A stretch of DNA of 35,516 nucleotides from Ignavibacteria bacterium (GTDB lineage Bacteria; Elusimicrobiota; Endomicrobiia; PHAN01), in contig JBGFRZ010000072.1 of NCBI GenBank assembly GCA_041694835.1, positions 1 through 35,516 on the forward strand, given 5' to 3'. The translations under genes and the position numbers were made by a program. Below, piece after piece: positions 4,267 through 31,979 of the stretch (its first letter is position 1; each line of letters starts with the position of its first letter). The notes beneath the pieces were generated by a model. It saw only the letters and a program-made list of their open reading frames with translations. It made no database searches and had not been told where the DNA came from.

Positions 4267-4295
4267 CCCCGTTAGAAAAATCCTTTCTAACGGGG
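4267..4295. mobile_element. Minimal CCCCGTTAGA-family element
   Basis: Perfect 12-bp inverted repeat CCCCGTTAGAAA-AATCC-TTTCTAACGGGG followed by TGAA. Confidence 0.75.
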
Positions 4296-4430
4296 TGAAT
4301 GCCTCTGTGGTGAGGTTTTAGCAAAGCGTCAGTGGTCTCATGTATCAGGGACGCTCGCTGAACCCCTCTTAAAAAGTATTTTTGATTAAAAGAGCGGTCA
4401 AAATCTACGCAGCGAATTTTTTTCACTGAT

Positions 4431-4484
4431 ATTATATAACTCATCTGTTAAGCGAGTATAAGTAATTTGTTAATTTTTTGTTAA
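4431..4484 (-). promoter_or_regulatory. Pho-regulon-like promoter: TTAACA repeats at 11-bp phasing plus TATAAT
   Basis: Plus-strand TGTTAA at 4446, 4468 and 4479; minus-strand TATAAT at 4431-4436; points at the porin-pstS-pstC unit. Confidence 0.62.
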
Positions 4485-4603
4485 CCCCGTTAAAGGTATT
4501 CTATAATTATTATTCCACCATATCCAAATAGAGGGCTTGTCTCTGCAATCGCAGGTCACAAGATATAAGAAGTGTAGCAATAGCCTATTTGTATCAAGAA
4601 GAC

Positions 4604-4633
4604 TTGACAGCACTACCAATAGTATGCTATAAT
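4604..4633 (+). promoter_or_regulatory. Sigma70 promoter for the nrdR operon
   Basis: TTGACA (4604-4609), 18 bp, TATAAT (4628-4633), with extended -10 TG. Confidence 0.8.
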
Positions 4634-4666
4634 CCTCCCACATAGTATGGGTAGTGGTATCATAAT

Positions 4667-5164
4667 ATGAAATGTCCAACCTGTGGCAGCAATAATAATG
4701 AAGTTCTTGATACAAGAAATATTGATGGCAGTGCGGTGATAAAAAGGCGACGCGAATGCGTCTACTGTAAAAAACGCTTTACTACATATGAAAGAGTGGA
4801 GTTCCATCATCCTATGGTCGTCAAAAATGACAATAGCCGCGAAATTTTTGACCGTGGAAAACTCATGAAGGGCATGAGATTGGCTTGTCTAAAGAGACCT
4901 GTTTCCGAAGAAACACTTGAAAAAATTGTCGCAGAAATTGAAAAAGAATTGCAAGATTATATAATGGAGGCGCCTTCCAAAATCATCGGAGAATTGGCTC
5001 TTAAGCGGCTCCGACAGATTGATGAAGTGGCTTATGTCAGATTTGCTTCCATTTATAGAAAATTTGATAGTGTAGATGCTTTTATGAACGAGTTAAAAAA
5101 CTTAAAAAAACTCCGCCATTCGGCGAAAACTAAAAAAACACAGAAGTTAGAAAACACAAATTAA
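4667..5164 (+). CDS. nrdR: Transcriptional repressor NrdR
   Basis: MKCPTC...RRREC..C..RFTTYE Zn ribbon, ATP cone, DEVAYVRFASIY. Confidence 0.97.
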   Translation: MKCPTCGSNNNEVLDTRNIDGSAVIKRRRECVYCKKRFTTYERVEFHHPMVVKNDNSREIFDRGKLMKGMRLACLKRPVSEETLEKIVAEIEKELQDYIMEAPSKIIGELALKRLRQIDEVAYVRFASIYRKFDSVDAFMNELKNLKKLRHSAKTKKTQKLENTN

Positions 5165-5300
5165 AGTAAACAACTTGATAGAATGATAAAAAAATAAATT
5201 GCTAAAACGGTAGCAGACAAGTTGATATTTACCGAATTGTAGTTGCCAGTCATCAGTTGCCCGTTGTAGTTGGAGACATTGGTCTGCTATATTTAAGATA

Positions 5301-5618
5301 ATGGATAACAATAAAAATTGTCAGGACGAAAGTTGTAAAATTCCCGCAAGTGGCAACATGAACATCGCTTTACTGAATGACATTATTTCAGTTGCAAATT
5401 TACAAAGGTTGCGTCTAAAAGTTTTTGGTAAGTTAGGATGCGAAAAATGCGAATTTGTAAAAAAGTATTTGCAGGGAAAAATCGAATTTGACTATTATGA
5501 TATAAGCGAAGTTGAAGGACTGACCGAGGCGGCCGTCTGGGATGCCATTGATATCCCTGCGATTATTCTGGAAAAGGATGGCGATGCAATCGCGCGATGG
5601 AGCGATAGCAAAAAATAA
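5301..5618 (+). CDS. Glutaredoxin/NrdH-like CxxC redoxin
   Basis: KVFGKLGCEKC motif and cis-Pro-like DIPAII; lies between nrdR and nrdG. Confidence 0.7.
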   Translation: MDNNKNCQDESCKIPASGNMNIALLNDIISVANLQRLRLKVFGKLGCEKCEFVKKYLQGKIEFDYYDISEVEGLTEAAVWDAIDIPAIILEKDGDAIARWSDSKK

Positions 5619-5723
5619 TGTGGGAGCATTAAAAAGGTTATTTACCACGGAAAACACGACCTCTTGTCTTTAACCTCGTCTCTAATTTCGTAGCAGGGTT
5701 TTAGCGGAGCGTCAACAATCTCG

Positions 5724-6353
5724 ATGTGTAACGATTCAAAGATATTTGCGACATTCAAACCGGATTCCTTTATTGACTGGAACAAAGGGGTTACATCCGT
5801 CATATTTCTTGCCGGATGCAACTTCAGATGTCCGTGGTGTCACAATCTTGAAATAGTCATAAATCCGCACAAATATCCATTAGATTTTTCAACTTTGGAA
5901 AAAGAGTTGAAAGAAAGAAAAAAGTGGTGCAGTCGAGTTGTAATTTCGGGCGGAGAGCCAACGCATAACGCTCAACTGGTTTTTATCATGAGAAAACTAA
6001 AAGCGTTGGATCTTGCTCTGAAACTCGACACAAACGGTTCCAACCCCGCTCTTTTAAGTTCATTAGTCAAAGAAGAGTTGGTGGACTACATAGCGATGGA
6101 CATAAAAACATCCTTGGATACCGGAAGATATTCTCGCTGTTGCGGGGCAGATGTTGACATAGGCAAAATAAACAAAAGTATTGATGTAATAATAAGTTCG
6201 GGAATAGAATATCAGTTCAGGACCACTGTGGTGCCAGAGTTTGTAGATGATGAGGATATAACAAATATCCGCAGGAGAATTCCAGACAGCAGACATTATC
6301 TGCTTCAGAGATATTCTCCCGTGGAAGATAGAAAGTTTAGAGTTGAGAGTTGA
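5724..6353 (+). CDS. nrdG: Anaerobic ribonucleotide reductase activating enzyme (radical SAM)
   Basis: CNFRCPWCHN, VVISGGEPT, KLDTNGS and FRTTVVP motifs; adjacent to nrdD. Confidence 0.93.
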   Translation: MCNDSKIFATFKPDSFIDWNKGVTSVIFLAGCNFRCPWCHNLEIVINPHKYPLDFSTLEKELKERKKWCSRVVISGGEPTHNAQLVFIMRKLKALDLALKLDTNGSNPALLSSLVKEELVDYIAMDIKTSLDTGRYSRCCGADVDIGKINKSIDVIISSGIEYQFRTTVVPEFVDDEDITNIRRRIPDSRHYLLQRYSPVEDRKFRVES

Positions 6354-6558
6354 ACCAGTTTAGAATTTAGAGTTGAGAGTTGAGAGAATAAAATGCCGTA
6401 AAGTGGAAAACGTATATCGGAAAGCGGGAAGCGGAAAGAGTTAAAAGCCGTTCACCCTTCGCGCTTTATGCTTTGCGTTCTTCTATTTCCGCTTTCCGTT
6501 TTCTGTCCCCTCGCCTCTGACCTCTGTCCTCTAGACCAAGTTCTCTAAACTCTAAACT
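6333..6558. repeat. Nested inverted heptamer tracts
   Basis: Outer GAGTTKA / CTCTAAA arms and inner AAGCGGA / TTCCGCT arms; 6419-6477 matches the reverse complement of 15024-15082 at 51/59. Confidence 0.85.
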
Positions 6559-6575
6559 ATATTAATGGAGGTTTT

Positions 6576-9059
6576 ATGAGGACAAATTATTTTTCAGGTG
6601 TTATGAAAAGCGGCGGCAAGTTGGAGCAGTACGACTATAAGAAAATTCTTGCTTCGCTGAATAAAGCAAACAGTTCGGGAGATGATTATAAGAAAATAAA
6701 CGAAGTGGCTGAAAAAGTTGAAAAGGTTCTTATGTGTACTTTTCTGCCCGGTAGCATTATTTCGAGCGATCTTATCGGGAAGACAATAGAGGCATCGCTC
6801 GGCGAACTCAGTTTGCATCGCACACTGAAAGTATTTAATCAATTTCTTGTCTCAAAACAAAAAACGAGAAAAAATTTAAAAGTTGCCAAGCAGTCATCCA
6901 AAAAGGCGGATGTGACGGACTTTACCTTATTGGTTGAGACGGATAGTAGTTCACAACTATTTGAATGGGACAGAAAAAAAATCGCAGACGCTTTGGTTAA
7001 AGAAGCGAGAATAAACAACAAAGATGCTCATCAAATAGCGAAAAATGTTGAAAAAAAAATAATTTCTTCCGGATTAAAAAAAATAACCACTAGTTTAATC
7101 AGAGAAATCGTAGACAATGAACTCCTGTCGCTCGGTTATGTCGCAAATTTAAAAAGACAGGTTTCGCTCGGTATTCCCACATACAACCTCGAACAAATAA
7201 TTTTTTCAAAAAGTCAGGAAAACTCCAACATAGCGGCACACAACCCCGAAGCGGTCAATCTCGCCATCGCAGAAACCACGCTGAAACAATACGCTCTCAA
7301 CAACATATTTTCCAAGGAAGTCGCGGACGCTCATTTGGAAGGAAGGATTCATTTACACGATTTGGGATATCCCACGAGGGTCTATTGCTCGAGTCATTCT
7401 CTCGAATACATAAAAAAATACGGACTAAAGTTGGAAAATTTAGAAATTGTTTCATCTCCCGCCAAACATGCCCGGACATTGACAGGACATCTCAACACTT
7501 TTCTGGCTTCTATGCAGGCATACTATGCGGGAGCACTGGGAATTGGTTACATCAACATTTTTTACGCCCCCTACCTTGTTGGAATGAGTTATGAAGAAAT
7601 GCTTCAAGAGGCGCAGTATCTGATATTTTCTCTCTCTCAATCGGCGTTTTCAAGGGGTGGGCAGGTATTGTTTTTAGATGCAAACATACATACTGGAATT
7701 CCTTCATACTTAAAGAAGATTCCAGCCATCGGTCCCGGTGGCGTTGCAACCGGGAAAGTTTATGATGACTATGAAAAAGAATCGCAACTATTTGCCCTTG
7801 CCTTGCTTGAAGTTTGGCGCAAAGGCGATTCTAACGGCAACCTTTTTGCTTTCCCAAAGTGCGATTTGCATATAAACAGTGAAACTTTTACTGACCCGGC
7901 TCAGAGGAGGATTCTTGAATATGCCTGTGAAGTGGCGAGCGAAAACGGCACACCGTATTTTATTTTTGACAGAGACGAAGTGACGCTTTCCGCTTGTTGT
8001 CGACTCCGCACCACCATCACCGACAACTACATGATAGAACACCCCGAGAGCATGAGATTCTGCGGTTTCCAAAATGTTACAATAAATCTCCCGCAGTGTG
8101 CTTACCGCGCGGGCAAAAACAATTTAGACGGCTTATTAAAAGAAATATATGCGGATATGAATATAGCGGTTCGGGCACACCTGGAAAAGAAAAAATTTAT
8201 CGGCCGATTAATGTCCGAGAAAAATTTGCCTCTTTGGCAAATTGGCAAACTTGCGCTCGACGACAGACCTTATGTTGCTCTTGAAACGGCGACCTACATA
8301 GTGGGCATCATTGGTTTAAACGAATGTGTTCAACATATTACCGGCCGGCAGTTGCATGAAGACCCCGATGTTTTTAAGTTGGGATTAAAAATAATATCGG
8401 CGATGTTTATTAAGTCCAAAGAATTGGGGCAGAAACATAATTTGAAAATATCGCTTGAAGAAAGTCCGGCTGAATCCGCGTCGCGACGACTTGCCAAAGT
8501 GGACCTCCACAAATTCAAAGAGGCGAAAGACGTAATTAAAGGCAATCATTCGGCGGATGAGTTTTATTACACTAATAGCATTCACTTCGCCGCCGATGCT
8601 CCTGTAAATCTTTTTGAGAGGATTGAGAAACAGAGTAAATTTCACCCCCTTATTGAGAGCGGCGCTATAATTCACGCATTCATCGGAGAAGAAAGCCCCC
8701 AACCCGCGGCCGTGTATGACCTCATCAAAAAGACATGGGAAAATACAAAAGCAGCTCAACTTACTATTTCTCCCGAGTTTACAATTTGTTTTATCTGCAA
8801 CAAACACACTCGCGGACTGAAAGATTCCTGCATTTACTGCGGCTCCACTGCGGTTTATGGAATAACCAGAGTGGTGGGGTATTTTTCCAGAATAACAAAT
8901 TGGAACAAATCCAAAAAAGGAGAGTTAAAAGACAGACACAAAGGCGACTACGCGCTGAACAGTAGAGCGACACAGCAACATAGCGACATAGCGACAGATT
9001 ATGTAGCGGCGGGTTTACCATCCCGCAAATTGTCGCATAGTAGTGCTTTGTTAAGTTAG
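6576..9059 (+). CDS. nrdD: Class III (anaerobic) ribonucleoside-triphosphate reductase
   Basis: N-terminal ATP-cone(s), IHLHDL, SACCRL finger loop, CxxC...CxxC Zn site, RVVGYF glycyl-radical loop; SD GGAGG. Confidence 0.96.
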   Translation: MRTNYFSGVMKSGGKLEQYDYKKILASLNKANSSGDDYKKINEVAEKVEKVLMCTFLPGSIISSDLIGKTIEASLGELSLHRTLKVFNQFLVSKQKTRKNLKVAKQSSKKADVTDFTLLVETDSSSQLFEWDRKKIADALVKEARINNKDAHQIAKNVEKKIISSGLKKITTSLIREIVDNELLSLGYVANLKRQVSLGIPTYNLEQIIFSKSQENSNIAAHNPEAVNLAIAETTLKQYALNNIFSKEVADAHLEGRIHLHDLGYPTRVYCSSHSLEYIKKYGLKLENLEIVSSPAKHARTLTGHLNTFLASMQAYYAGALGIGYINIFYAPYLVGMSYEEMLQEAQYLIFSLSQSAFSRGGQVLFLDANIHTGIPSYLKKIPAIGPGGVATGKVYDDYEKESQLFALALLEVWRKGDSNGNLFAFPKCDLHINSETFTDPAQRRILEYACEVASENGTPYFIFDRDEVTLSACCRLRTTITDNYMIEHPESMRFCGFQNVTINLPQCAYRAGKNNLDGLLKEIYADMNIAVRAHLEKKKFIGRLMSEKNLPLWQIGKLALDDRPYVALETATYIVGIIGLNECVQHITGRQLHEDPDVFKLGLKIISAMFIKSKELGQKHNLKISLEESPAESASRRLAKVDLHKFKEAKDVIKGNHSADEFYYTNSIHFAADAPVNLFERIEKQSKFHPLIESGAIIHAFIGEESPQPAAVYDLIKKTWENTKAAQLTISPEFTICFICNKHTRGLKDSCIYCGSTAVYGITRVVGYFSRITNWNKSKKGELKDRHKGDYALNSRATQQHSDIATDYVAAGLPSRKLSHSSALLS

Positions 9060-9424
9060 TTTTTTTGGCTCTTCTCCAAATGTTGTTGTAACATTGGGTA
9101 AGGGTAAAAACAAAGTATTTTCGCTCATTCTCGTCCCGATAAATCGGGCGCGGGGCAATCAAGTGTTCACACTTGATTAAACCCGCTCAAACACTTTGTT
9201 TTTATACGCACAGCAAAAAATGGAGAAGACCCGTTTTTTTAGGTGGTGGATTTTTTAATACCATTGCCGACTTTGCTTTTGTAAATCCCCCTGCGCGGAG
9301 TTTACCCCGCACAGTTATTGTGCGGGGCTTCCCCCTTTATTAAAGGGGGACTAAGGGGGATTTGTTCCCGACACTTGTGAGCGGCACTATCAAAGATTTA
9401 TGTCACAGGACACTAAAAACATCT

Positions 9425-9856
9425 ATGAAAATAAAAATTTTACGATTAAACAAAGATGTTCCTTTACCGATTTATCAACACGAAGGGGATTCATGCATTG
9501 ATTTGGCAAATGCGGGAGATGATACATTCATTAAACCCTTCGAAAGGCGTATCGTTTTTACGGGCATAAAAGTCGAAATTCCCGACGGATATGAGTTGCA
9601 AATTCGACCCCGAAGCGGACTTGCCCTAAAAAGAGGTATTACCGTTTTAAATACACCCGGCACGGTTGATTCGGGATATCGAGGCGAAATAGGAGTTATT
9701 TTGTATAACAGTTCTAAGAAAAAAGTGGAAATTAAAAAAGGCGAGAGAATAGCCCAAGCCGCTCTTTGCAAAGTTGAAAAAATAATTTGGCGGGAAGTTA
9801 AAACAATAAGCGCGACAAAAAGAAATGCGGGAGGCTTTGGCTCTACGGGACACTGA
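9425..9856 (+). CDS. dut: dUTP diphosphatase
   Basis: RPRSGLA, NTPGTVDSGYRGEI, ERIAQ and GGFGSTG motifs; start placed at ATG 9425. Confidence 0.96.
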   Translation: MKIKILRLNKDVPLPIYQHEGDSCIDLANAGDDTFIKPFERRIVFTGIKVEIPDGYELQIRPRSGLALKRGITVLNTPGTVDSGYRGEIGVILYNSSKKKVEIKKGERIAQAALCKVEKIIWREVKTISATKRNAGGFGSTGH

Positions 9857-9861
9857 TAAAA

Positions 9862-9932
9862 GTGACTGGTGGCTAGTGACTTGTGGCTGGAGGAAATAAA
9901 CCACGAGCAACGAGCCGCAAGCAACGAGCCGC
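9862..9932. repeat. Inverted heptamer pair (GTGRCTN arm / RCGAGCM arm)
   Basis: gtgactg-gtggcta-gtgactt-gtggctg faces ccacgag-caacgag-ccgcaag-caacgag. Confidence 0.8.
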
Positions 9933-9951
9933 CGCCTTCCTTGGAGGATAA

Positions 9952-11121
9952 ATGTCATTATTTATCGGAAAAGATAGAGAGGCGCGCCGCGCTTATGGAT
10001 TTGACGAGATAGCGCTCGTTCCGTCGGACATTACTGTTGATATCAATGATGTCGATGTTGCGACGAAAATCGGAAATTTGCGTATGGAAATTCCGATTTT
10101 TGCAAGCGCCATGGATGGGGTCGTAGATGTATCATTCGCAAAAGAGTTTGGAAAACTTGGCGGCATTGCAGTGCTGAATTTGGACGGTGTCCAGACGCGA
10201 TACGAAAATCCAAAAGATGCGATTGAAAAAATAAGAAAGGCGTGCGAGTCAAAAGACAACAAAAGCACCGGGATAATTCAGAAAATTTATCAAGCAAAAG
10301 TCAAGGTAGATTTGATTTCTCAGAGAATAAAAGAAATTAAAAAAGAAAATGTCTTGACGGCGGTTTCGACGATACCAAAGAATGCCGAGAAGTACTTAAA
10401 AATAGCCCAAGAAGCAGGTTGTGATTTGTTTGTAATACAATCGACCGTAACGACGGCAAGGTTTTATTCAAAATGTCAAGAAGTAGTAGACCTAAAAAAA
10501 ATCTGCACTTCATCTAAAATACCTGTCATTGTCGGCAATACGGTTTCATATTCATCGGCGTATGAATTGTTCGAGTTAGGCGCCTCGGGGATTCTTGTTG
10601 GAATCGGTCCCGGAGCAGCATGCACTACCCGCGGTGTTTTGGGTATTGGCGTTCCTCAAGTGACGGCAATAGTTGATTGTTGCGCCGCAAGAGAACAGTA
10701 CTTTAAAAAAACCAGACGCTCTGTCTCTGTCATTGCCGACGGAGGAATGGTTACAAGCGGGGATATCTGCAAAGCGATTGCCTGCGGTGCAGATGGTGTG
10801 ATGATAGGTTCAGGACTTGCAAGAGCCATGGAGTCGCCGGGTTGCGGCTTTCACTGGGGCATGGCTACGAGTCACAAAAATCTTCCGAGAGGAACGGGGA
10901 TAAGCGTCGGAGTCACTGGAAGTATCAAAGAAATTCTTTTTGGTCCTGCAAGAACTGATGACGGAACTCAGAATTTAGTGGGCGCCCTAAAAACCTCCAT
11001 GGGTTCGTTAGGCGTCAAAAATATCAAAGAAATGCAATCGGTTGAAATAATCGTTGCACCAGAAATAAAACACGAAGGAAAATTTCATCAGAAGTCGCAG
11101 AAAGTCGGAATGGGAAAATAA
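9952..11121 (+). CDS. guaB: IMP dehydrogenase, GuaB3-type (no CBS domains)
   Basis: N-terminus ARRAYGFDEIALVP typical of GuaB3; catalytic GIGPGAACTTR; ADGG; immediately upstream of guaA. Confidence 0.88.
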   Translation: MSLFIGKDREARRAYGFDEIALVPSDITVDINDVDVATKIGNLRMEIPIFASAMDGVVDVSFAKEFGKLGGIAVLNLDGVQTRYENPKDAIEKIRKACESKDNKSTGIIQKIYQAKVKVDLISQRIKEIKKENVLTAVSTIPKNAEKYLKIAQEAGCDLFVIQSTVTTARFYSKCQEVVDLKKICTSSKIPVIVGNTVSYSSAYELFELGASGILVGIGPGAACTTRGVLGIGVPQVTAIVDCCAAREQYFKKTRRSVSVIADGGMVTSGDICKAIACGADGVMIGSGLARAMESPGCGFHWGMATSHKNLPRGTGISVGVTGSIKEILFGPARTDDGTQNLVGALKTSMGSLGVKNIKEMQSVEIIVAPEIKHEGKFHQKSQKVGMGK

Positions 11122-11127
11122 AACATT

Positions 11128-12678: not shown

Positions 12679-12798
12679 CGGCGGGATTGCTATCCCGCGA
12701 TTAGTGGATGGTGGCTTGTGACTGGTGTCTAGAAAAAACCGGTAATCAGTAATCGGTAATTAACAACGCGTCACAAGAATTTTAGCGGAGCGTAAATT

Positions 12799-13585: not shown

Positions 13586-14449
13586 ATGAAATTAGATAAG
13601 CCGCTATATTCAGGTAAGATTCGAGAGTTGTATGATATCGGCAGATTTAATAATATTGATGCGCTTCTGCTCGTGTCAACCGACAGGATTTCCTGTTTTG
13701 ATGTTGTGCTTCCGACGGCAATTCCCGACAAGGGAAAAATTTTAAACACAATGTCAAACTTTTGGTTCGACCATATGCGAGATGTCGTTGGAAACCATCT
13801 CTTGAGCACCGATTTAAAAGAAATAGAAGAAATTCCTAAAAATTTTATCGAGCGTTCCGTAATAGTCAAAAAGGCAAAAAGGCTCAATGTCGAATGCATA
13901 GTGAGGGGCTACCTTGCCGGCTCCGCTTTAAAAGAGTATCTAAAACAGGGAACAGTCGGCGGTGTAAAAATGCCTAAGGGTTTAAAGGAGTCGGGAAGAC
14001 TTCCTGAAGTCCTCTTTACTCCGTCCACAAAAGAATCGCTCGGAAAACACGACATAAATATTTCTTTTGACGAGCTCGCTGTGCGAATCTCTCCTGAAAC
14101 AGCCCAAAAAATAAAAAAATTATCATTGACTATTTACGAAAAAGCAAGACAGTATGCGGAAAGCAAGAACATAATTATTGCCGACACAAAATTTGAATTT
14201 GGATTTCACGACGGAGAAATTATACTAATTGATGAGGTCTTAACCCCCGACTCTTCGCGATTTTGGGATAAAAATGTATATGAGCCCGGGAAGCCGCAAA
14301 AAAATTTCGACAAACAATTTGTAAGGGACTATCTCATTTCCATTGAGTGGGAAAAGTTGCCACAAGTTCCCGAATTGCCGTCGGATATAGTCCAAAAAAC
14401 AAGAGAAAGATATCTTGAAGTACAGAATCGACTATGCGAAGCTCAATAA
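13586..14449 (+). CDS. purC: SAICAR synthase
   Basis: GKIRELY, DRISCFD, ADTKFEFG, DEVLTPDSSRFW and DKQFVRDYL motifs. Confidence 0.97.
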   Translation: MKLDKPLYSGKIRELYDIGRFNNIDALLLVSTDRISCFDVVLPTAIPDKGKILNTMSNFWFDHMRDVVGNHLLSTDLKEIEEIPKNFIERSVIVKKAKRLNVECIVRGYLAGSALKEYLKQGTVGGVKMPKGLKESGRLPEVLFTPSTKESLGKHDINISFDELAVRISPETAQKIKKLSLTIYEKARQYAESKNIIIADTKFEFGFHDGEIILIDEVLTPDSSRFWDKNVYEPGKPQKNFDKQFVRDYLISIEWEKLPQVPELPSDIVQKTRERYLEVQNRLCEAQ

Positions 14450-15042
14450 TAACAGTTTTTAACAAAAAAGGCATATATAACTCTGAAGCAGAAAGTGTCA
14501 AAAGAGACATAAAAGTTCTCGGATTTGATTTTGTTGAGGACATAGAGGTGAGTTCTTTGTATATCGTTGAGTTAGATGTAAATCGCGAAGAACTCAAAAT
14601 GTTTTGCGAAAAAATACTTATAGACCCTGTCATTCAAGGATATCAGATTTTAGAAAATGACGAACTTGACTCGCACAAAAATATCAATGACGAAAAATCA
14701 TCGTCGGCGAGCGGCGGAGAATATTTAGTCGATGTCTACTACAAAAAAGGCGTAATGGATCCCGTGGCGGAAACTATAATGCTTGCGATGAAGGATATGG
14801 GAATAAACCCCGTTAGAAATGATATTATGTGTGGCATCATTCAACAGAAAAATTCCAGGTGCATTATTCAATCACAGAATATTTCTAACGGAGCAAAAGT
14901 GTCAACTGGCAAAAGATATCTTGTTAAAATGAAAGATGGGAAAGAACAGCTACAAAATGTCAAAAAAATAGCGGAAAAAGTTTTTTGCAACACAATCATA
15001 CAGGATTACAAAGTGATAAAAATCGTAAAGCGGAAAGCGTGA
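14434..15042 (+). CDS. purS: FGAM synthase PurS subunit, tandem two-domain form with a 30-aa element-derived insert
   Basis: Two PurS-like repeats (...KILIDPVIQGY and KKGVMDP...KVFCNTIIQDY); lies between purC and purL. Confidence 0.8.
   Translation: MRSSIITVFNKKGIYNSEAESVKRDIKVLGFDFVEDIEVSSLYIVELDVNREELKMFCEKILIDPVIQGYQILENDELDSHKNINDEKSSSASGGEYLVDVYYKKGVMDPVAETIMLAMKDMGINPVRNDIMCGIIQQKNSRCIIQSQNISNGAKVSTGKRYLVKMKDGKEQLQNVKKIAEKVFCNTIIQDYKVIKIVKRKA
14808..14893. mobile_element. CCCCGTTAGA-family element inserted in-frame in purS
   Basis: CCCCGTTAGAAAT...ATTTCTAACGGAG with flanks TAAA/CAAA; 86+4 = 90 bp. Confidence 0.85.
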
Positions 15043-18604: not shown

Positions 18605-18615
18605 AAAATATATAT

Positions 18616-23737: not shown

Positions 23738-23839
23738 AGAATTAGAGGTTATTATTAGTCAATCGGCAACTAATCCGCTAATTCACTAATTTACTGATTT
23801 TCTCTTCTTGGCGACAGGGTTTTTCAACACTTTCGATAT

Positions 23840-24367
23840 ATGAAAATAAAAAACATCCTGAAAGAATCTGAAATAAAAAAAGCGATTAAAAGAATGTCTG
23901 TCGAGATTTTCAAAGGCAATAAAGATATCGCCAATCTTGTAATTGTAGGCATTCAGACGCGAGGGGTTCATTTGGCAATGCGACTTCTCTCACACCTCAA
24001 AAAGACGACCAAAAAAAATATTTCGTTTGGTCAACTGGACATCACATTTTACAGAGACGACATAGATAAAATTTCACATCAGCCGATTGTAAAAGAAACA
24101 AAAATTACCGACGACATAACCGACAAAGATATTCTCCTGGTTGACGATGTCCTTTTTACCGGTCGCACAATAAGGGCTGCACTTGATGCTCTGATGGATT
24201 ACGGCAGACCTAAAACAATAAAACTTGCGGTATTGATAGATAGAGGATGTCGCGAACTTCCCATCCGTCCTGACTATGTCGGAAAAATACTGACAACCAA
24301 TACCAAAGAGATGGTAAGTGTGAAATTAAAAGAAGTTGATGGCAAGGACGAAGTAGTGATTCGCTAA
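23840..24367 (+). CDS. pyrR: PyrR attenuation regulator / uracil phosphoribosyltransferase
   Basis: GIQTRG, LDITFYRDD, VDDVLFTGRTIRAALDAL and DRGxRELPIRPDYVG motifs. Confidence 0.95.
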   Translation: MKIKNILKESEIKKAIKRMSVEIFKGNKDIANLVIVGIQTRGVHLAMRLLSHLKKTTKKNISFGQLDITFYRDDIDKISHQPIVKETKITDDITDKDILLVDDVLFTGRTIRAALDALMDYGRPKTIKLAVLIDRGCRELPIRPDYVGKILTTNTKEMVSVKLKEVDGKDEVVIR

Positions 24368-24499
24368 TACAAAATGGCAAATTCACGAATTGCGCCGAAT
24401 ATTCGCAGAAAACGCGGAAGTCACTTGAAGTGAAAAGAGTGATGTATAAATTTGATTTTCTGTGTAATCTGCGGATTACAGAATAGAAGTGCTCATCGT

Positions 24500-25447: not shown

Positions 25448-25640
25448 GTAACAAAACGAACCCCGTTTTTATATGTGGCTCCGATTTATCGGGGTAAGCC
25501 CCGCACAATAAATGTTCGGGATAAACTCCGCGAATAGACGTTTCAACCCCGCGGATCCTAAAAAGGAGTAGAGTCTGGAGAAGAGGATTTAGCCCCGTGA
25601 TGAACGACCCTGAAGGGTCTACTCCGGGTGAGGAGGAAAA

Positions 25641-26945
25641 TTGAATCTTTCAATAATTAACGGAATTGTTGTCGACCCTGCAAATAAAATTTTCCAAAAA
25701 GCAGACATTCTTGTTAAAAATGGAAAAATTGCAAAAATCGGAAAAATCACAAGCCACAAGCCGCGAGCCACGAGCCACAAAATAATAGACGCAAAAAATA
25801 AACATGTCGTTCCGGGATTGATTGACATTCACACTCACTTGAGGGACCCTGGAAACGAGGCGCAAGAGACGCTCTCCAGCGCTACAAAGGCTGCCGCTAT
25901 GGGCGGTTTTACGACAATATTTTGCATGCCTAACACTGTGCCCGTTGTTGATTCTCCGCTTGTCGTCAAATATATTTTGTTCGAAACCAAATCTTCGGGA
26001 GTGGTGAATGTGTTCCCCGTCGGAGCGATTACAAAAAAAAGTGAGGGTCAGGAACTTGCGGAAATCGGCAAAATGAAATCGGCTGGCATTGTCGCCGTTT
26101 CCGACGATGGACACTCAGTTATGAATTCGCTCATAATGCGCAGAGCTCTTGACTACTGCAAAGCATTTGACTTGACCGTCATATCTCACTGCGAAGATGT
26201 AAATTTATCTTCAGGCGGAGAGATGAACGAGGGTTATGTTTCAACTATTTTAGGGCTAAAAGGAATACCTAATCAGTCGGAAGAAATTATGGTGGCGAGA
26301 GATATTTTGCTTGCACAGTTGACCGGCGGAAAACTCCATATCGCTCACATCAGCACGGCGGGAGCCGTTAATCTGGTAAGACAAGCAAAAAAAGACGGCA
26401 TAGATGTAACATGCGAAACCGCTCCCCACTACTTCACATTGACAGAAGAAGAGGTTAAAAAAAGCGACTACAACACAAATACAAAAATAAATCCGCCGCT
26501 CAGAACCGAGAAAGATGTTAATGCAATAATCAAAGGGCTTGCCGACGGAACGATTGATTGCATCGCCTCTGACCATGCACCTCATCTTGAAGAAGAAAAA
26601 CAACAAGAGTTTCGACTTGCGCCGTTTGGGATAATAGGACTTGAAACGATGCTCCCTCTTGTAATCACTAAACTTGTGAAAGAAAAAATTTTAACTTTAT
26701 CTGATGCGCTCGCCAAAATGACTGTTAATCCCGCCAAGATATTCAAAATAAAAAAGGGCGGTATCTCTGAGGGCGATGATGCAGACATAACGATTATATC
26801 GCTTGATGAAACCAAAGTGATAAACAAATTCATTTCAAAAAGTAAAAATTCACCTTTTGTCGGGATGAAATTAAGCGGTTTTGCCTCAGCGACAATCGTC
26901 GGCGGCCATGTCGTTATAAAAGACGGGCAAATAATAGACCATTAA
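25641..26945 (+). CDS. pyrC: Dihydroorotase
   Basis: PGLIDIHTHLRDPG, MPNT and ASDHAPH motifs; TTG start with SD AGGAGG. Confidence 0.96.
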   Translation: MNLSIINGIVVDPANKIFQKADILVKNGKIAKIGKITSHKPRATSHKIIDAKNKHVVPGLIDIHTHLRDPGNEAQETLSSATKAAAMGGFTTIFCMPNTVPVVDSPLVVKYILFETKSSGVVNVFPVGAITKKSEGQELAEIGKMKSAGIVAVSDDGHSVMNSLIMRRALDYCKAFDLTVISHCEDVNLSSGGEMNEGYVSTILGLKGIPNQSEEIMVARDILLAQLTGGKLHIAHISTAGAVNLVRQAKKDGIDVTCETAPHYFTLTEEEVKKSDYNTNTKINPPLRTEKDVNAIIKGLADGTIDCIASDHAPHLEEEKQQEFRLAPFGIIGLETMLPLVITKLVKEKILTLSDALAKMTVNPAKIFKIKKGGISEGDDADITIISLDETKVINKFISKSKNSPFVGMKLSGFASATIVGGHVVIKDGQIIDH

Positions 26946-27099
26946 AAAACTTTACCACAGAAAACACGGAAAATGCAAATGAACAGATAAGAAAATTACC
27001 ACGAAAACACGAAATTTAGAAGTTACGAAAAAAGAATCAACAAAAATTTTAGATTTCTTCGTGTCTTCGTGGTTAAGATTTTTTAAAAATTAAAATTAA

Positions 27100-28098
27100 A
27101 TGATTCAATCTGATTGTAAAATAACTTCAAAAAAGCGATTGACTGATAATTGTTTTCTCTTCACTTTTACGAATTCTGCGATTGCTCAAAAAGCAAAACC
27201 CGGGCAATTCGTCATGGTGAACCCCGTTAAAAGTAAGTCCCACCAAGGCAGAATCGCCAATGTAGTTCTCGAATTACATCGGACTTCTAACGGGATGAAT
27301 GTTGATTACGGAATCGCAGCGAATAAATGCAGCCCCCCAATACATTGTGGGGTGAGTGGAGCGAATAGAGTGTTAAAAGGTCTCTACTTGACAAATAGGA
27401 TTTTTTTAAGACGGCCTTTTAGCATATGTGTTGCAAAAAATAAAACTTTTAGTATATTTTTTAAGGTCGTGGGACCAGGGACGGATATTTTAAGTCAAAA
27501 AAAAGAAGGCGATGTTCTCAATATCATCGGTCCATTAGGTTGTGGTTATTTCCTCTCCTCTCTACCCTCTCCTCTTTCCCCTATATTCGTTGCCGGCGGC
27601 ACAGGCATCGCTTCACTTTTTTTCCTCGCTAAACGAGTCACAAACCACAAGCCACGAGCCACAATTTTCATTGGTGCAAAGACAAAAAAAGAAATATTTT
27701 TTAAGAAAGAACTTGAAAAAAATGGCTGTAAAGTAATTGCTTCCACCGACGACGGTTCTTACGGACATAAAGGATATATATCCGATGTTTTTAGTCGTTA
27801 TCTATCCACTATCCACTATCCACTATTCACTGCTGTTTACGCCTGCGGGCCCAGGCCAATGCTAAAAAAAATTGCTGAAACATCTGAAAAATATAAATTG
27901 AAGTGTTATGTCTCTTTGGAAGAAAAAATGGCTTGTGGGGTGGGTGCTTGTATGGGGTGTGTTGTAAAGACACGGATAAGTACGGATATGAAAACACAGA
28001 TTAACACTGCTGATTTTGAATACAAACGGGTCTGTAAAGATGGTCCTGTTTTTGATGCTGATGAAATAATCTGGGAAAATGAGTATACGAATCAGTAA
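27100..28098 (+). CDS. pyrK: Dihydroorotate dehydrogenase electron-transfer subunit, with several repeat-derived inserts
   Basis: PGQFVM, RRPFSI, GPLG, AGGTGI, CGP and MACGVGACMGC...RVCKDGPVF motifs. Confidence 0.93.
   Translation: MIQSDCKITSKKRLTDNCFLFTFTNSAIAQKAKPGQFVMVNPVKSKSHQGRIANVVLELHRTSNGMNVDYGIAANKCSPPIHCGVSGANRVLKGLYLTNRIFLRRPFSICVAKNKTFSIFFKVVGPGTDILSQKKEGDVLNIIGPLGCGYFLSSLPSPLSPIFVAGGTGIASLFFLAKRVTNHKPRATIFIGAKTKKEIFFKKELEKNGCKVIASTDDGSYGHKGYISDVFSRYLSTIHYPLFTAVYACGPRPMLKKIAETSEKYKLKCYVSLEEKMACGVGACMGCVVKTRISTDMKTQINTADFEYKRVCKDGPVFDADEIIWENEYTNQ
27222..27295. mobile_element. CCCCGTTAGA-family element inserted in-frame in pyrK
   Basis: CCCCGTTAAAAGT...ACTTCTAACGGGA with flanks TGAA/TGAA; 74+4 = 78 bp. 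Confidence 0.87.
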
Positions 28099-28960
28099 AT
28101 TACAACTGAAAAATCCTGTGCTCGTAGCATCGGGAACATTTGGTTACGGGCTTGAGTTTAAGGACTTGTTAGATTTAGATAAACTTGGCGCTATTGTTAC
28201 AAAAACGATTACACTAAACCCGCGAAGTGGCAATCCTCAACCGAGAACATTTGAACTTTCTTATGGAATGATAAACTCTATAGGACTTCAAAATGTTGGT
28301 TTGGAAAAATTTATAAATGAGAAGTTGCCCGAAATCAGGAAAATTACAAAAACACCAATCATCGTAAGCGTAGGCGGAAACACAAAAAATGAGTTTTCTA
28401 AAATTTTAGAGACATTAAACTCTGAAAAAGTTGATGCCGTTGAATTGAATCTATCTTGCCCGAATGTAACAGGTAAAAAAATTATTTCACAAAATGACAA
28501 AGAAACATATAAATTTGTGAGTGCTCTAAGAAAAAAAACGAACTTGACATTAATTGTGAAACTTTCGCCGAATGTTACCGACATAACAAAAATTGCAAAA
28601 TCCGCTGAGGATGCGGGCTCTGACGCTATTTCTTTGATAAATTCTTTTCCCGCGGCATTTTACCGATTACCGATTACTGATTACCAATTACCAGTTTTCG
28701 GCGGTCTTTCGGGTCCTTGCATAAAACACATCGCCTTGAGAATGGTTTATCAGGTCTCGCAGGTTGTGAAAATTCCTATAATAGGCATGGGTGGAATAAT
28801 GAACACGGGCGATGCTTTGGAATTTTTTAAAGCAGGCGCTAAAGCAATTGCTGTCGGTTATGCAAATTTCATAAATCCAAAAACACCGCTCGAAATAATA
28901 GAAGGATTAAAACCCCATTCTAACCAATATCTGTTTAATTGTCGTCGAAAATCGGTGTAA
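28079..28960 (+). CDS. pyrD: Dihydroorotate dehydrogenase (family 1B) catalytic subunit
   Basis: NPVLVASGTFGYG, NSIGLQN, ELNLSCPN, KLSPNVTDI and GGLSGP motifs. Confidence 0.96.
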   Translation: MSIRISKLQLKNPVLVASGTFGYGLEFKDLLDLDKLGAIVTKTITLNPRSGNPQPRTFELSYGMINSIGLQNVGLEKFINEKLPEIRKITKTPIIVSVGGNTKNEFSKILETLNSEKVDAVELNLSCPNVTGKKIISQNDKETYKFVSALRKKTNLTLIVKLSPNVTDITKIAKSAEDAGSDAISLINSFPAAFYRLPITDYQLPVFGGLSGPCIKHIALRMVYQVSQVVKIPIIGMGGIMNTGDALEFFKAGAKAIAVGYANFINPKTPLEIIEGLKPHSNQYLFNCRRKSV

Positions 28961-28974
28961 TCTGTGTTAAAAAT

Positions 28975-29706
28975 ATGGAACTAATTGTTGCTTTAGATGT
29001 TGATACTCTCTCAGAAGCAGAGAAAATTATAAATCTTTTGAAACACAAAGTTGATGTATTCAAAGTGGGTTCGCGGCTTTTTACGTCTGTTGGTCCTGCA
29101 ATTTTGAATTTATTAAATTCGAATGATTGTAAAATATTTTTGGACTTGAAATACCACGATATACCAACGGTTATTTCCGATGCCGTTCGGGCCGCCTATG
29201 ATAATAAAGTTTTTGCTGTATCTCTTCATATCGCCGGCGGGAGAGAAATGCTCGAAAAGTGTGTTTCTTTGAAGAACAAACCGCTCCTATGGGGCATAAC
29301 CGTGCTTACGAGTTTTGATGAAAATGACTTAAAAGAACTTGGTGTGTGTAGAAAAATCGAAGAACAGGTTTTGCACTTGGCAAAAATCGCCAAAAGCATC
29401 GGGCTCGACGGCGTCGTTTGTTCGCCGGGGGAAATAGAAATCGTGAAAAAGTTGGGCAGTTTAAAAATAATCATTCCGGGCATACGATTTACCCCGTTAG
29501 AAGTCCGATCCGTTAACACATCGACATCCCGTTCATCGGGACTAATTCTGGCGGGGCATGTGGAAACGACTGACGACCAAAAAAGAACACTGACGCCAAA
29601 GGAGGCAAAGGAAAAAAACGCCGACTACATTGTCGTCGGGAGACCAATAATTAAGGCAGATAATCCACTCGCAGTCACAGAAAAAATACTTGAAGAAATA
29701 AAATAA
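28975..29706 (+). CDS. pyrF: Orotidine-5'-phosphate decarboxylase
   Basis: IVALD, FLDLKYHDIP, PGIR...DDQKR and VVGRPI motifs; start placed at ATG 28975. Confidence 0.96.
   Translation: MELIVALDVDTLSEAEKIINLLKHKVDVFKVGSRLFTSVGPAILNLLNSNDCKIFLDLKYHDIPTVISDAVRAAYDNKVFAVSLHIAGGREMLEKCVSLKNKPLLWGITVLTSFDENDLKELGVCRKIEEQVLHLAKIAKSIGLDGVVCSPGEIEIVKKLGSLKIIIPGIRFTPLEVRSVNTSTSRSSGLILAGHVETTDDQKRTLTPKEAKEKNADYIVVGRPIIKADNPLAVTEKILEEIK
29492..29556. mobile_element. Degenerate CCCCGTTAGA-family element in-frame in pyrF
   Basis: CCCCGTTAGAA...TTCTGGCGGGG; ends match the reverse complement of the pyrK copy; 65+4 = 69 bp. Confidence 0.78.
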
Positions 29707-29741
29707 ATACATATTTCAGTGCAAAATCGGATGCAGATGAA

Positions 29742-30004
29742 CCCCGTTAGAAATTTCTAATGGTGGATATTGCCCGGAAAAACTTTTAGTATATTGAAAT
29801 TGTTGAAAAACCCATCTTTTTCACTTAAAGGGCAGTTTCTTAACGGTTAAAAGTTTCAATCAGACCGCAAAACTCCTCGCTTTGCTCGTCAGACATTGCG
29901 GTCTAAACGATTTCAACTTTTAACCTGAAACTGCCAAATCGTTCAAAAGATTAAGGTTTTTCAACGAGCTCATATTCTTAAAGTCGTTGTAATTTCTAAC
30001 GGTG
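29742..30004. mobile_element. Long (263 bp) CCCCGTTAGA-family element with internal foldback
   Basis: CCCCGTTAGAAATT...AATTTCTAACGGTG with flanks TGAA/TGAA; interrupts a GGAYGCAGATGAACGCAGA repeat. Confidence 0.85.
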
Positions 30005-30172
30005 TGAACGCAGATTAAACCGCTTTGATATCTTTTTCGGTGTTTATCTGTGGTTAAAAGTTTTATTCTGCGGTAATCTTGTAAATCCGCGTCCCAAACA
30101 AAGTGTATGTTTCTGTGGTTTATTCAGTTATGAGGTTTTGGTGACAATTAAAAATACTTTTGAAGGATATTT

Positions 30173-30739
30173 ATGATGAACGTATTAAAATTATTCAAAG
30201 AACAAAAAGCACTTTTATCCGGACATTTCCTGCTTTCGTCGGGTTTGCATTCCGACAAATATGTTCAATGCGCCAAAGTTTTACAATATCCAAATCTCGC
30301 AGAACAACTCGCCAAAGCGCTCATGGCTCGTGGCTCGTGGCTCGTGGCTCGTTCAAAGATTGATGTTGTTGTTTCACCGGCAATAGGCGGGCTTGTTATT
30401 GGGCAGGAAATCGCAAGACAATTAAAAACCCGTGCAATATTTTGCGAAAGAGAAAATGGAAAAATGGAACTCCGTCGCGGATTTGAAATTAAAAAAAATG
30501 AAAAATGTTTGATTGCCGAAGATGTAATAACAACCGGCTCGTCGACGAATGAGGTAATAGAAGTAGTGAAGGAAGCGGGTGGAAAAATAGCGGGGAAAAT
30601 TGCTATTATCGACAGGTCGCCGCTAAAAAATTTTGCCGTTTCATTGTTGAAACTAAAAATAAAAGCATACGAACCGGAAAATTGTCCATTGTGTAAGAAG
30701 AAAATACCACTAATAAAACCCGGCAGTAAACCCCGTTAG
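30173..30739 (+). CDS. pyrE: Orotate phosphoribosyltransferase
   Basis: GHFLLSSGLHS, SPAIGG, LRRGF, EDVITTG and CPLC...KPGS motifs. Confidence 0.95.
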   Translation: MMNVLKLFKEQKALLSGHFLLSSGLHSDKYVQCAKVLQYPNLAEQLAKALMARGSWLVARSKIDVVVSPAIGGLVIGQEIARQLKTRAIFCERENGKMELRRGFEIKKNEKCLIAEDVITTGSSTNEVIEVVKEAGGKIAGKIAIIDRSPLKNFAVSLLKLKIKAYEPENCPLCKKKIPLIKPGSKPR

Positions 30740-30853
30740 AGATACATTCTTACTGCCTGCGAATGATAGTTATGATAAATCAATGTGAGCAAAGTTTCTC
30801 AGGTAAAATTACAGATAGAGCGTCCCGACTGGGCGGGACTATCTCTGACGGGG
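30731..30853 (+). mobile_element. 123-bp CCCCGTTAGA-family element, copy A
   Basis: CCCCGTTAGAGATA...TATCTCTGACGGGG with flanks TAAA/TAAA; 120/123 identical to 31857-31979. Confidence 0.9.
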
Positions 30854-30890
30854 TAAAAATTTATAACTATAGGAAAGATAACTATGAACG

Positions 30891-31856
30891 ATGAACGATA
30901 ATATGATTACTTACAAAAAATCTGGTGTAAATATTGATAGGGCTAATGAATTTGTCGATTGGCTCAAAAAAATGGCGCCGAAAATCGGTGGATTTTCCGG
31001 ACTTTTCCCGATAGATAAAAATAAGTTTTTGGCCGCATCTTGCGATGGTGTCGGCACAAAGTTAAAAATTGCCCGGTTGCTGAATAAACACAACACCATT
31101 GGTATCGACCTTGTAGCGATGAATGTAAACGACCTAATATGTTGTGGAGCCAAACCGCTGTTTTTCCTCGATTACTACGCTTGCGGGAAACTGAATTTAC
31201 AAATCGCAAAGGAAGTTATTTCGGGGATAAAAAACGGTTGTGAGCAATCAAATTGTACATTGCTTGGGGGTGAAACGGCGGAAATGCCGGGATTTTATAA
31301 AGGAAACGAATATGATTTGGCGGGTTTTGCGGTTGGAATCGTCGAGAAAAAGAATATTATTGACGGTTCGAAGACAAAAAAAGGCGATTTAATAATAGGT
31401 TTGCCTTCTTCTGGATTACATTCAAACGGTTTTTCGCTTGTTAGAAAGGTTTTCTCGGAAAAAGAAATAAGAAAACATGGAACCGCGCTTTTGCAACCAA
31501 CAAGAATCTATGTAAACCAAATCTACTCACTACTTACTACTTGTTACTCACTGCGAAATTTCATTCATGGAATTTCGCATATCACTGGCGGTGGTTTTTA
31601 TGACAATATTGTAAGAATACTTCCCAAAAGTTGTAAGGCGGTAATTTACAAAGACAGATGGGTTGTTCCCGGGATTTTTACAATCATACAGAAGAAAGGA
31701 AATGTTTCCGCTCAAGAAATGTATAGAACTTTCAACATGGGAATTGGAATGATACTAATTGTTCAAAGTTCAAAGTTCGAAGTTCAAAGTTTATTGAAAG
31801 ATGCTGTCATTATCGGTGAAATTGTTGAAGGAAAACGGAGGGTTGAGATTGTTTAA
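30891..31856 (+). CDS. purM: AIR synthase
   Basis: YKKSGVNI, DGVGTK, GGETAEMPG, SSGLHSNG, HITGGG and TFNMGIG motifs. Confidence 0.97.
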   Translation: MNDNMITYKKSGVNIDRANEFVDWLKKMAPKIGGFSGLFPIDKNKFLAASCDGVGTKLKIARLLNKHNTIGIDLVAMNVNDLICCGAKPLFFLDYYACGKLNLQIAKEVISGIKNGCEQSNCTLLGGETAEMPGFYKGNEYDLAGFAVGIVEKKNIIDGSKTKKGDLIIGLPSSGLHSNGFSLVRKVFSEKEIRKHGTALLQPTRIYVNQIYSLLTTCYSLRNFIHGISHITGGGFYDNIVRILPKSCKAVIYKDRWVVPGIFTIIQKKGNVSAQEMYRTFNMGIGMILIVQSSKFEVQSLLKDAVIIGEIVEGKRRVEIV

Positions 31857-31979
31857 CCCCGTTAGAGATACATTCTTACTGTCTGCGAATGATAGTTATG
31901 ATAAATCAATGTGAGCAAAGTTTCTCAGGTAAAATTACAGATAGAGCGTCTCGACTGGTCGGGACTATCTCTGACGGGG
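31857..31979 (+). mobile_element. 123-bp CCCCGTTAGA-family element, copy B
   Basis: Direct repeat of 30731-30853; flanks TTAA/TAAA; overlaps the 5' end of purN. Confidence 0.9.

Follow-up and report, generated by a model that had tools for sequence, protein, structure and literature searches.

Seven hairpin-ended repeats in a nucleotide-metabolism gene cluster are likely gene-less copies of a tiny element that encodes a GIY-YIG nuclease

A 35,516-nucleotide contig from the Elusimicrobiota (assembly GCA_041694835.1, contig JBGFRZ010000072.1, deposited as Ignavibacteria bacterium; the whole stretch, positions 1 to 35,516, is called the window here) carries seven short sequences with common inverted ends, three of them in frame within purS, pyrK and pyrF. 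We think it likely that the seven are miniature gene-less copies, like the small transposable elements with inverted-repeat ends known as MITEs, of a tiny element that a GIY-YIG nuclease would mobilise. The full-length form would be about 279 bp, consisting of two 13-bp terminal inverted repeats and one gene for a single-domain GIY-YIG nuclease of 86 residues. Insertion would duplicate 4 bp of a T-N-N-A-like target, and the target would usually supply the stop codon of the nuclease. The bolder claim is one that we find about as easy to doubt as to accept: that the copies are relics of an unclassified prokaryotic transposon, perhaps the smallest autonomous one, having 279 bp, 13-bp ends, an 86-residue nuclease, a stop codon borrowed from the target, and a way of recognizing the stem that leaves the loop free.

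Copies in the window and in the genome

The window is contig C71 of the genome that we label G000 (1.9 Mb in 89 contigs, 42% G+C). With at most one mismatch allowed, the terminus CCCCGTTAG has 15 matches in the window versus 3.53 on average, and never more than 8, in 100 dinucleotide shuffles. All seven copies with common termini that a sequence-only reading of this DNA had listed are recovered, as follows.

4267..4295, no strand assigned: 29-bp mini copy with 13-bp inverted ends and a 3-nt centre; flanks CTTG/TGAA, no duplication
14808..14893, plus strand: 86-bp copy within the tandem purS (14434-15042), in frame in its second PurS domain; flanks TAAA/CAAA
27222..27295, plus strand: 74-bp two-hairpin copy, in frame in pyrK (27100-28098); flanks TGAA/TGAA
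29492..29556, plus strand: 65-bp two-hairpin copy, in frame in pyrF (28939-29706); no flank duplication
29742..30004, no strand assigned: 263-bp composite copy between pyrF and pyrE; flanks TGAA/TGAA
30731..30853, no strand assigned: 123-bp copy at the pyrE 3' end; flanks TAAA/TAAA
31857..31979, no strand assigned: 123-bp copy directly 3' of the purM stop; flanks TTAA/TAAA

The same reading had described the interiors as mostly unrelated and the flanks as duplicated. The interiors are indeed mostly unrelated, apart from the two 123-bp copies, identical at 120/123 positions, and a few subfamilies seen genome-wide. The flanks stand as given for five copies, those at 4267 (CTTG/TGAA) and 29492 (TTTA/CATG) having none; the right end of the 29492 copy is degenerate, TCTGGCGGGG. 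Similarity between the two 123-bp copies starts exactly at the left end, and therefore at least one duplication or transposition has been recent in this lineage. A single strand of the copies folds into the terminal stem, and the DNA fold of the 4267 copy has −13.1 kcal/mol and z = −7.3.

Two of the copies lie where they had been placed and needed redefinition. The one at 4267 is a 29-bp hairpin module within a copy (4196-4345) of a different, abundant repeat, and the frame running across it lies in repeat DNA and has no Pfam match. The 263-bp copy is a composite, its first 24 bp (29742-29765) being a mini hairpin, with another repeat nested in it.

The repeats that host or fill these copies are families of their own. 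The one around 4267, of the CACAGAG..TTTACCACGAAAGCACGAAAG.. type, is very abundant, with dozens of full or partial copies genome-wide; some of these hold the 29-bp CCCCGTTAGA hairpin module plus about 7 nt per side, and others are without that 43-nt block. The repeat nested in the 263-bp copy (29766-29990) has inverted ends of the TTGAAAAACC..GGTTTTTCAA type, encloses a long hairpin, GGCAGTTTC..GAAACTGCC, and recurs at C84:13406-13719, C55:4172-4475 and from C26:137 onward.

Genome-wide, G000 has 104 exact terminus 9-mers, where about 4.2 per strand (about 8 in all) are expected. Pairing a left and a right end within 20-400 bp, with terminal mismatches totalling two or fewer, yields 67 copies of 24-345 bp. 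Five groups are seen: 29-bp mini hairpins, mostly as a module of another abundant repeat; copies of 80-86 bp with a common AT-rich core; copies of 53-74 bp with two internal G+C-rich hairpins that differ in sequence; copies of 123 bp; and composites of 260-585 bp with other nested repeats, in which no credible gene frame is present.

The ends are 13-bp terminal inverted repeats. Positions 1-10 read CCCCGTTAGA, and positions 11-13 vary yet are complementary between the two ends in 40-48/50 copies in G000 and 57-74/78 elsewhere. At position 11, Watson-Crick pairing occurs in 74/78 copies versus a shuffled mean of 30.5, with several types of pair represented, and complementarity stops at position 14. 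The proposal of fixed ends around variable cargo is thus borne out in a strict form, in that the 13-bp ends are the only common part, and this across many phyla. The copies are short, non-coding and multi-copy, with terminal inverted repeats and a target duplication of fixed length, which are the features by which MITEs are known.

Evidence of insertion

Flanking sequence gives the evidence that the copies arrived by insertion. Both flanks fit a T-N-N-A/R pattern, and exact 4-bp direct repeats across the element exceed a control that pairs left flanks with right flanks at random. They occur in 20/62 copies in G000 (shuffled mean 5.0, maximum 12), in 34/80 mini copies of other genomes (mean 5.1, maximum 11), and in 17/69 of the full-length copies described below (mean 3.8, maximum 9). 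Direct flank repeats of 3, 5 or 6 bp are rare, and inverted flank repeats are not above the shuffle. There are also nested cases in which the end of one copy, known from the consensus, is broken by a 29-bp mini copy, with TTAG or CTAA on both sides (L053, G044). The view of the copies as non-autonomous, hairpin-ended insertions that duplicate 4 bp at their flanks, and sit in frame in core enzymes, is supported.

The coding form

A MITE family should have a parent with the same ends that encodes the mobilizing enzyme. A coding form with these ends does exist, though not in G000; its gene is for a GIY-YIG nuclease, whose part in movement is putative. One genome, G041, has a 277-bp copy whose interior is a broken GIY-YIG frame. 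A Pfam GIY-YIG search of relatives finds a small gene in G010 about 50 bp from a mini copy, and this gene is part of a 274-bp element (G010:C5:131741-132014) that has CCACGTTAGAGAT and ATCTCTAACGGGG as its ends and TTAA/TTAA as its flanks. The gene's open frame is intact, starts 19 nt within one end, runs through the other end, and scores E = 1.3 × 10−14 against Pfam GIY-YIG.

With the G010 protein alone as the query, at least 437 metagenome stretches encode relatives. The best 80 (61-80% identity) were examined, which makes them the closest relatives of one protein and a biased sample, a point that counts against generalizing from them. In 75/80, both ends are present within two mismatches, the elements being 275-340 bp long and most often 279 bp (33 loci). 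The 73 unique full-length copies have at least 84 open codons in 71 cases and exactly 86 in 33, and the commonest position of the start codon is 21 nt from the left end. The frame of 35/73 stops at a codon formed by the first three flank bases (TGA 23, TAA 10, TAG 2). Purines take the second flank position in 54/69 full-length copies versus 39/80 gene-less ones, an excess consistent with selection for a stop codon that adds to the target preference. The C-terminus RFLSLTG is encoded by the right end and nearly invariant, in the frame that also yields ..LTG/..LAG in the PyrF insert.

Relatives of the protein are numerous. A word-index search returns 5,779 protein clusters at E ≤ 10−5, the best mostly of 86 residues, under the names 'GIY-YIG nuclease family protein', 'excinuclease ABC subunit C' and 'putative endonuclease'. 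The phylum sample comprises 401 Elusimicrobiota genomes in 123 genera, and at a threshold of E ≤ 10−18 the nuclease is found in 14, of which 11 also have the ends. It is present in 11/24 end-positive genomes versus 3/377 end-negative ones, counts that come from related, not independent, genomes and carry no formal test. G143 and G258, of the same class as G000, also have full-length copies. Outside G000, end pairs were covered up to a spacing of 500 bp, and those of 130-500 bp were examined in five carrier genomes.

The nuclease alignment has 21 invariant columns across 72 sequences, including two tyrosines, an arginine and a glutamate, which we take to be the expected GIY-YIG site residues (their roles as in I-TevI and UvrC). 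The AlphaFold model, with a pLDDT of 93.2, shows a long basic helix at the C-terminus. Two UPF0213 proteins (E ~ 10−6) are the sole solved structures related to the nuclease by sequence; by fold, the predicted model matches best UPF0213 protein BH0048, followed by Slx1 and At-HIGLE. The substrates of Slx1 and At-HIGLE are branched DNA and Holliday junctions. Relatives carry two further types of small GIY-YIG gene, an Ssn-like one and a UPF0213-like one, the fetched examples of the latter having no inverted repeat. The family profile scores 38-53 bits against these other types, and 38-46 bits against the Ssn-like L190, L193, L196 and L197. The low scores therefore make the element nuclease a third subfamily.

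The surroundings of the Ssn-like genes vary. L193 (G021:C2) has a complete TGTCATCCCGCA..TGCGGGATGACA hairpin on each side, which is the published Ssn/SRM layout. L190 (G002:C25), L196 and L197 (G039:C2) have a 12-bp exact inverted repeat across the gene, of like sequence in L190 and L197, and L194 has no inverted repeat.

The published system raises the question of whether the present one is also a nuclease with its repeats, kept by the host. By that account the protein would be a site-specific single-strand DNA nuclease acting on incoming or replicating DNA, and the hairpins would be its dispersed recognition sites, spread by recombination. The Ssn paper (PMC11893778) describes Ssn genes flanked by hairpin repeats that are dispersed in hundreds of copies; relatives carry Ssn-like genes with complete TGTCATCCCGCA hairpins on both sides; and the modelled fold is that of a structure-selective nuclease. 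Against it, direct 4-bp duplications and nested copies indicate insertion events, copies sit within essential genes of a genome that has no nuclease, and the distribution given below is patchy and crosses phyla, as fits a selfish element. The published SRM motif was also tried and is not enriched in G000, with 9 matches versus 4-9 in shuffles, none of them within elements. We consider a host-kept system of this sort improbable.

Other candidate mobilizing genes

The sequence-only reading had seen no mobilizing gene in the window. We agree, and the rest of assembled G000 has none that we could find. A GIY-YIG search of G000 returns only UvrC and two truncated fragments on contig C7, with no element nuclease, and a DNA profile of full-length elements matches just those two fragments. 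End pairs of G000 that lie 0.4-6 kb apart enclose no candidate gene, and self-BLAST of the genome shows no multi-copy element above 1 kb. G000 is 97% complete by marker genes, and a nuclease copy may lie in an unassembled part.

The fragments on C7 (C7:21405-21497 and C7:22957-23059) cover the first 31-40 positions of the Pfam model and are of the Ssn-like type. Both are bracketed by a different inverted repeat, ATCCCGCACCTA..TAGGTGCGGGAT, and therefore represent a second nuclease-in-a-stem element that has decayed in G000.

One could suppose an ordinary MITE family moved by a DDE transposase (IS1380, IS5, IS701 or piggyBac-like), with the GIY-YIG gene as mere cargo. Cargo in this family is otherwise arbitrary, G000 has one rve-type integrase frame (C42:12966-13709), and the C-run ends, the 4-bp duplication and the T-N-N-A target recall IS1380 and piggyBac. 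However, the lack of a gene between the distant end pairs of G000 speaks against this, and the transposases themselves are hardly to be found. The IS1380 transposase domain PF13701 has 0 matches in G000 and G010 and is present in 3 relatives that are without the ends, so an IS1380-type transposase was rejected as the partner; in G000, DDE_Tnp_1 gives only a sub-threshold 22-bit fragment and DDE_Tnp_4 nothing. Moreover, a passive cargo would not be expected to hold a fixed distance from the ends in 75/80 loci, nor to take its C-terminus from one of them. We would give a DDE transposase little chance of being the agent.

Hairpins resembling REP/REPIN might instead be spread by a Y1 transposase (RAYT or IS200-type) acting on single-stranded hairpins. 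The elements are hairpins, and G000 has one Y1_Tnp frame (C41:8754-9464, 237 codons, E = 1.3 × 10−12). That gene has an inverted repeat of its own (GGGGACGGTCCTCAATT; AATTGGGGACGGTCCTCAATT / AATTGAGGACCGTCCCCAATT), and no CCCCGTTAGA-like end pair with two or fewer mismatches lies within 2.5 kb of it. Movement of the REP or IS200 type is not known to leave a target duplication, whereas duplications are seen at the elements. This explanation strikes us as very improbable.

Distribution

Among 40 relatives, the ends are found in only one other genome, G010, of the same class and a different family, and the end pattern is missing from the two genomes of the same family as G000. In the phylum sample, 24 of the 401 genomes have the ends, in 19/123 genera, with 1 to 66 copies each; a reversed-pattern control gives 0 in all 401.

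An exact-match scan of one genome per prokaryotic species (596 billion bases) yields at least 122 loci, nearly all from metagenome-assembled genomes. About 17 chance matches are expected in that many bases at equal base frequencies, which again tells against taking every locus at face value, and a minority of the loci may be chance. Their titles name Patescibacteria lineages, Pirellulales (Planctomycetota), Phycisphaerae, Omnitrophota, Cloacimonadota, Deltaproteobacteria, Nitrospirota, Nitrospinota, KSB1, Bacteroidales, Gammaproteobacteria and others. In the loci that were fetched, interiors are mutually unrelated and exact 4-bp duplications are present in 35/82 copies; since, in addition, positions 11-13 pair in most of the copies outside G000 as given above, most of the cross-phylum copies are genuine. 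A plasmid collection gives one weak match only, at 37% identity, and viral contigs give 2 mini copies and no full-length ones.

Copies within genes

The inserts in the three core enzymes are as had been read from the DNA. Element plus 4 bp comes to 90, 78 and 69 bp, and the added peptides are NPVR..SNG in PurS (NPVRNDIMCGIIQQKNSRCIIQSQNISNG, from the 14808 copy), NPVK..SNG in PyrK (NPVKSKSHQGRIANVVLELHRTSNGM, from the 27222 copy) and TPLE..LAG in PyrF (TPLEVRSVNTSTSRSSGLILAG, from the 29492 copy). Of the three frames that cross the ends, two are open and the third, CCC CGT TAG, is a stop.

For each protein, 24 relatives were searched and 13 orthologues aligned. Matches to the relatives break and then resume at all three inserts, and the inserts are missing from orthologues wherever the rows cover the site. 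The PyrF insert sits in the loop between PGIR and DDQKR; matches stop at residue ~185 and restart at ~208, leaving a gap of ~22 residues in 13/13 orthologues. PurS has a 26-residue gap in 13/13. When the PurS copy and 4 bp are removed in silico, the loop becomes ~4 residues shorter than that of the orthologues, by our reading of the alignment, and no clean empty site results. The PyrK gap in covering rows is 57 residues, of which the first 26 are the element; 4/13 PyrK rows start only at the gap and are therefore uninformative on the insert.

PyrK has ~31-34 more residues (NVDYGIAANKCSPPIHCGVSGANRVLKGLYLTNR) just after the element (window 27296-27400) that are missing from the orthologues too. 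Their DNA has no clear second copy in the genome, the best match being 32 nt at E = 1.5 × 10−4.

Over the whole genome, 16 copies are spanned by long open frames, defined as reading through the copy with at least 40 codons on each side. Length plus 4 is divisible by 3 in 16/16 of these, a result that is partly circular, as the class demands read-through; the remaining 51 copies split 29/18/4 by (length+4) mod 3. The in-gene copies are in Pfam-recognized genes in 10/16 cases, three in the window and 7/12 elsewhere, often between domains. The hosts outside the window are a GT4 glycosyltransferase, a low-molecular-weight phosphatase, a radical-SAM protein, an ArsP permease, QueA, a CobA-HemD fusion and DapF.

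Judged from the reading frames, the in-gene copies are most likely translated as extra peptide loops in PurS, PyrK and PyrF. A search for public sequencing runs covering 27000-32100 listed none, nor any holder of RNA. They could in principle be removed at the RNA level before protein is made, the stable terminal stems marking a processing site, or be ordinary lineage-specific loops that do not move. Removal from RNA would not need the 16/16 long-frame copies to keep the frame and be free of stops, and no Rfam family matches anywhere in the window. The same ends are also seen between genes and in unrelated genes of many phyla, and orthologues are without the loops. We give hardly any credence to either variant.

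Other effects on genes involve starts and stops. The pyrE frame, now ending ..GSKPR, is terminated by the CCC CGT TAG frame (stop at 30737-30739) within the left end of the 30731 copy. The purN open frame (31889-32545) has its start ATG inside the 31857 copy; this is the sole in-frame ATG between the purM stop and the conserved purN start (KIGVLASGGG), and it adds ~31 residues. Element ends have in this way redrawn gene boundaries at 30728-30739 and 31854-31990.

By Pfam, the window is one long nucleotide-metabolism cluster, from nrdR/nrdD through pur and pyr genes to purA. Nearly all of 1-35516 is a co-directional supercluster of nrdR, nrdG, nrdD, dut, guaB, guaA and a thyA-like gene, continuing with purC/S/L/Q/F/D/E/K, a phosphoribosyltransferase, pyrB/C/K/D/F/E and purM/N/B/A. 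The purS gene (14434-15042) and its class-level relatives (L034-L046) are tandem double-PurS genes of 150-200 codons versus the usual ~80.

Proposed mechanism and its weaknesses

In the mechanism that we propose, the nuclease itself would be the mobilizing enzyme. It would read the paired ends as the stem of a hairpin or cruciform, so that the content of the loop would be free, and it would nick the base of the stem in the manner of Ssn and Slx1-type GIY-YIG nucleases. The 4-nt stagger would then be filled and sealed by replication or repair and a ligase of the host. If only the ends are required, any interior is allowed, be it 3-10 nt, hairpins, other repeats or the nuclease gene itself. Copies landing in genes would survive only where element and duplication add up to a multiple of 3 and no stop falls in the host frame. 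G000 has no nuclease gene, and its copies are therefore probably relics of past activity, or were moved in trans.

To the biased sample, the expected chance matches and the partial circularity mentioned above must be added several points that weigh against this proposal. The weakest step is the insertion chemistry: we know of no GIY-YIG nuclease that joins DNA, these being enzymes that hydrolyse, and the joining is therefore unexplained. Neither enzyme activity nor movement has been observed. Any transposase that binds both ends would give complementary ends, so the covariation at positions 11-13 is no proof of hairpin recognition. In 13/24 end-bearing genomes, including G000 and one with 66 copies, the assembly has no nuclease gene. 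No copy interior in G000 resembles the gene, so descent of these copies by deletion is conjectural. Translation of the in-gene copies would follow only from statistics of frame and stop. A perfect duplication is absent from 42/62 copies in G000, 46/80 mini copies and 52/69 full-length copies, which we read as decay or as amplification of composites, and which is a real weakness. Lastly, several full-length copies have the same flanks (TTTA..TGAATG), which suggests composite repeats and not independent insertions.

Shared flanks at the metagenome loci are of two kinds. Several full-length copies (L232, L233, L246, L247, L252, L255, L265) have the left flank GG(A/G)TTGGA with differing right flanks, and others among these loci have TTTA..TGAATG(A/T)C flanks in common. 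The pattern suggests preferred insertion into another repeat, or co-amplification with it.

If a nuclease-driven element is nonetheless the right explanation, a GIY-YIG hydrolase would be a new enzyme class in bacterial transposition, and the minimum size known for an autonomous element would be lowered. Such an element would explain how a family with identical ends comes to be in a dozen or more phyla, mostly uncultured, writing peptide loops into core enzymes, and it would offer a concrete model for the spread and in-gene translation of Rickettsia-type palindromic repeats, a long-standing puzzle. Thousands of annotations as 'GIY-YIG nuclease family protein' or 'excinuclease ABC subunit C' would become mobile-element genes, and odd inserts in enzymes of uncultured bacteria would be recognizable as element scars. 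One 86-residue protein and a 13-bp stem are small enough for a direct test, and tolerance of the loop could serve as a DNA tool.

Comparison with known systems

Literature searches found no description of a GIY-YIG cassette with inverted ends and target duplications, subscription journals lying mostly outside the search. Among the listed papers that contain the literal end sequences, judged by title and abstract, only PMC3969353 looked promising, and there the end 10-mer is present only in a synthetic oligonucleotide.

Correia/NEMIS repeats and insertion-sequence families with a 4-bp duplication, such as IS1380, have the traits of bacterial MITEs and their parents. The present family is like them in its inverted ends, fixed duplication, gene-less copies and a coding form with the same ends. 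It differs in that the coding form is only ~279 bp and the enzyme is a GIY-YIG hydrolase, not a DDE, HUH, serine or tyrosine recombinase. REP/REPIN repeats with their RAYT proteins, and IS200/IS605, are similar in having hairpin-based dispersed repeats and a single small gene that is flanked by them; here, however, the one Y1 gene of G000 is flanked by other repeats, and the elements have duplications.

Homing endonucleases such as I-TevI and the Seg proteins are comparable in that a GIY-YIG nuclease is the only protein of a selfish element. Homing enzymes have an added DNA-binding domain, are copied into one cognate site by homologous repair, and are not known to have inverted ends or duplications. 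I-TevI is only the 14th structural match to the nuclease model, at E = 0.5.

Rickettsia palindromic elements (RPEs), reportedly described by Ogata et al. in 2000, are said to be short palindromic repeats that sit in frame in housekeeping genes and are translated. RPEs are not known outside Rickettsia and its relatives, are about 100-150 bp long and have conserved interiors. The likeness, in-frame insertion into protein-coding genes, is functional only; the present family has fixed 13-bp ends, free interiors, a range of many phyla and a coding full-length form.

The closest published system is that of the Ssn nucleases and their SRM/NTS hairpin repeats (Nat Commun 2025, PMC11893778). Ssn proteins (about 94 residues in Neisseria, CDD family cd10448) are GIY-YIG nucleases of a single domain whose genes are flanked by hairpin repeats and which cleave single-stranded DNA beside those repeats, and the authors liken the gene-between-repeats layout to an insertion sequence. 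In both systems there is a small single-domain GIY-YIG protein (94 residues in Neisseria, 86 here) and a gene bracketed by inverted-repeat DNA that is also dispersed in many genomic copies. Ssn is reported there to tolerate a replaced or extended hairpin loop, which the loop freedom of our proposed mechanism parallels. Rickettsia is listed among genomes with more than 300 SRMs, so a deeper link to RPEs is possible. The differences are that the present flanks are two halves of one 13-bp stem, and those of Ssn a complete hairpin per side; that the motif here is CCCCGTTAGA versus GTCWY plus a CCCGC-type stem in Ssn; and that 4-bp duplications, gene-less copies with arbitrary cargo, in-frame insertions and a target-supplied stop do not appear in the passages on Ssn that were compared. 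The element protein also belongs to a separate subfamily by the profile scores given above. With the Ssn/SRM precedent and the MITE concept covering part of it, the family is only partly new; what is new here is a coding form around a tiny GIY-YIG nuclease, spread across many phyla.

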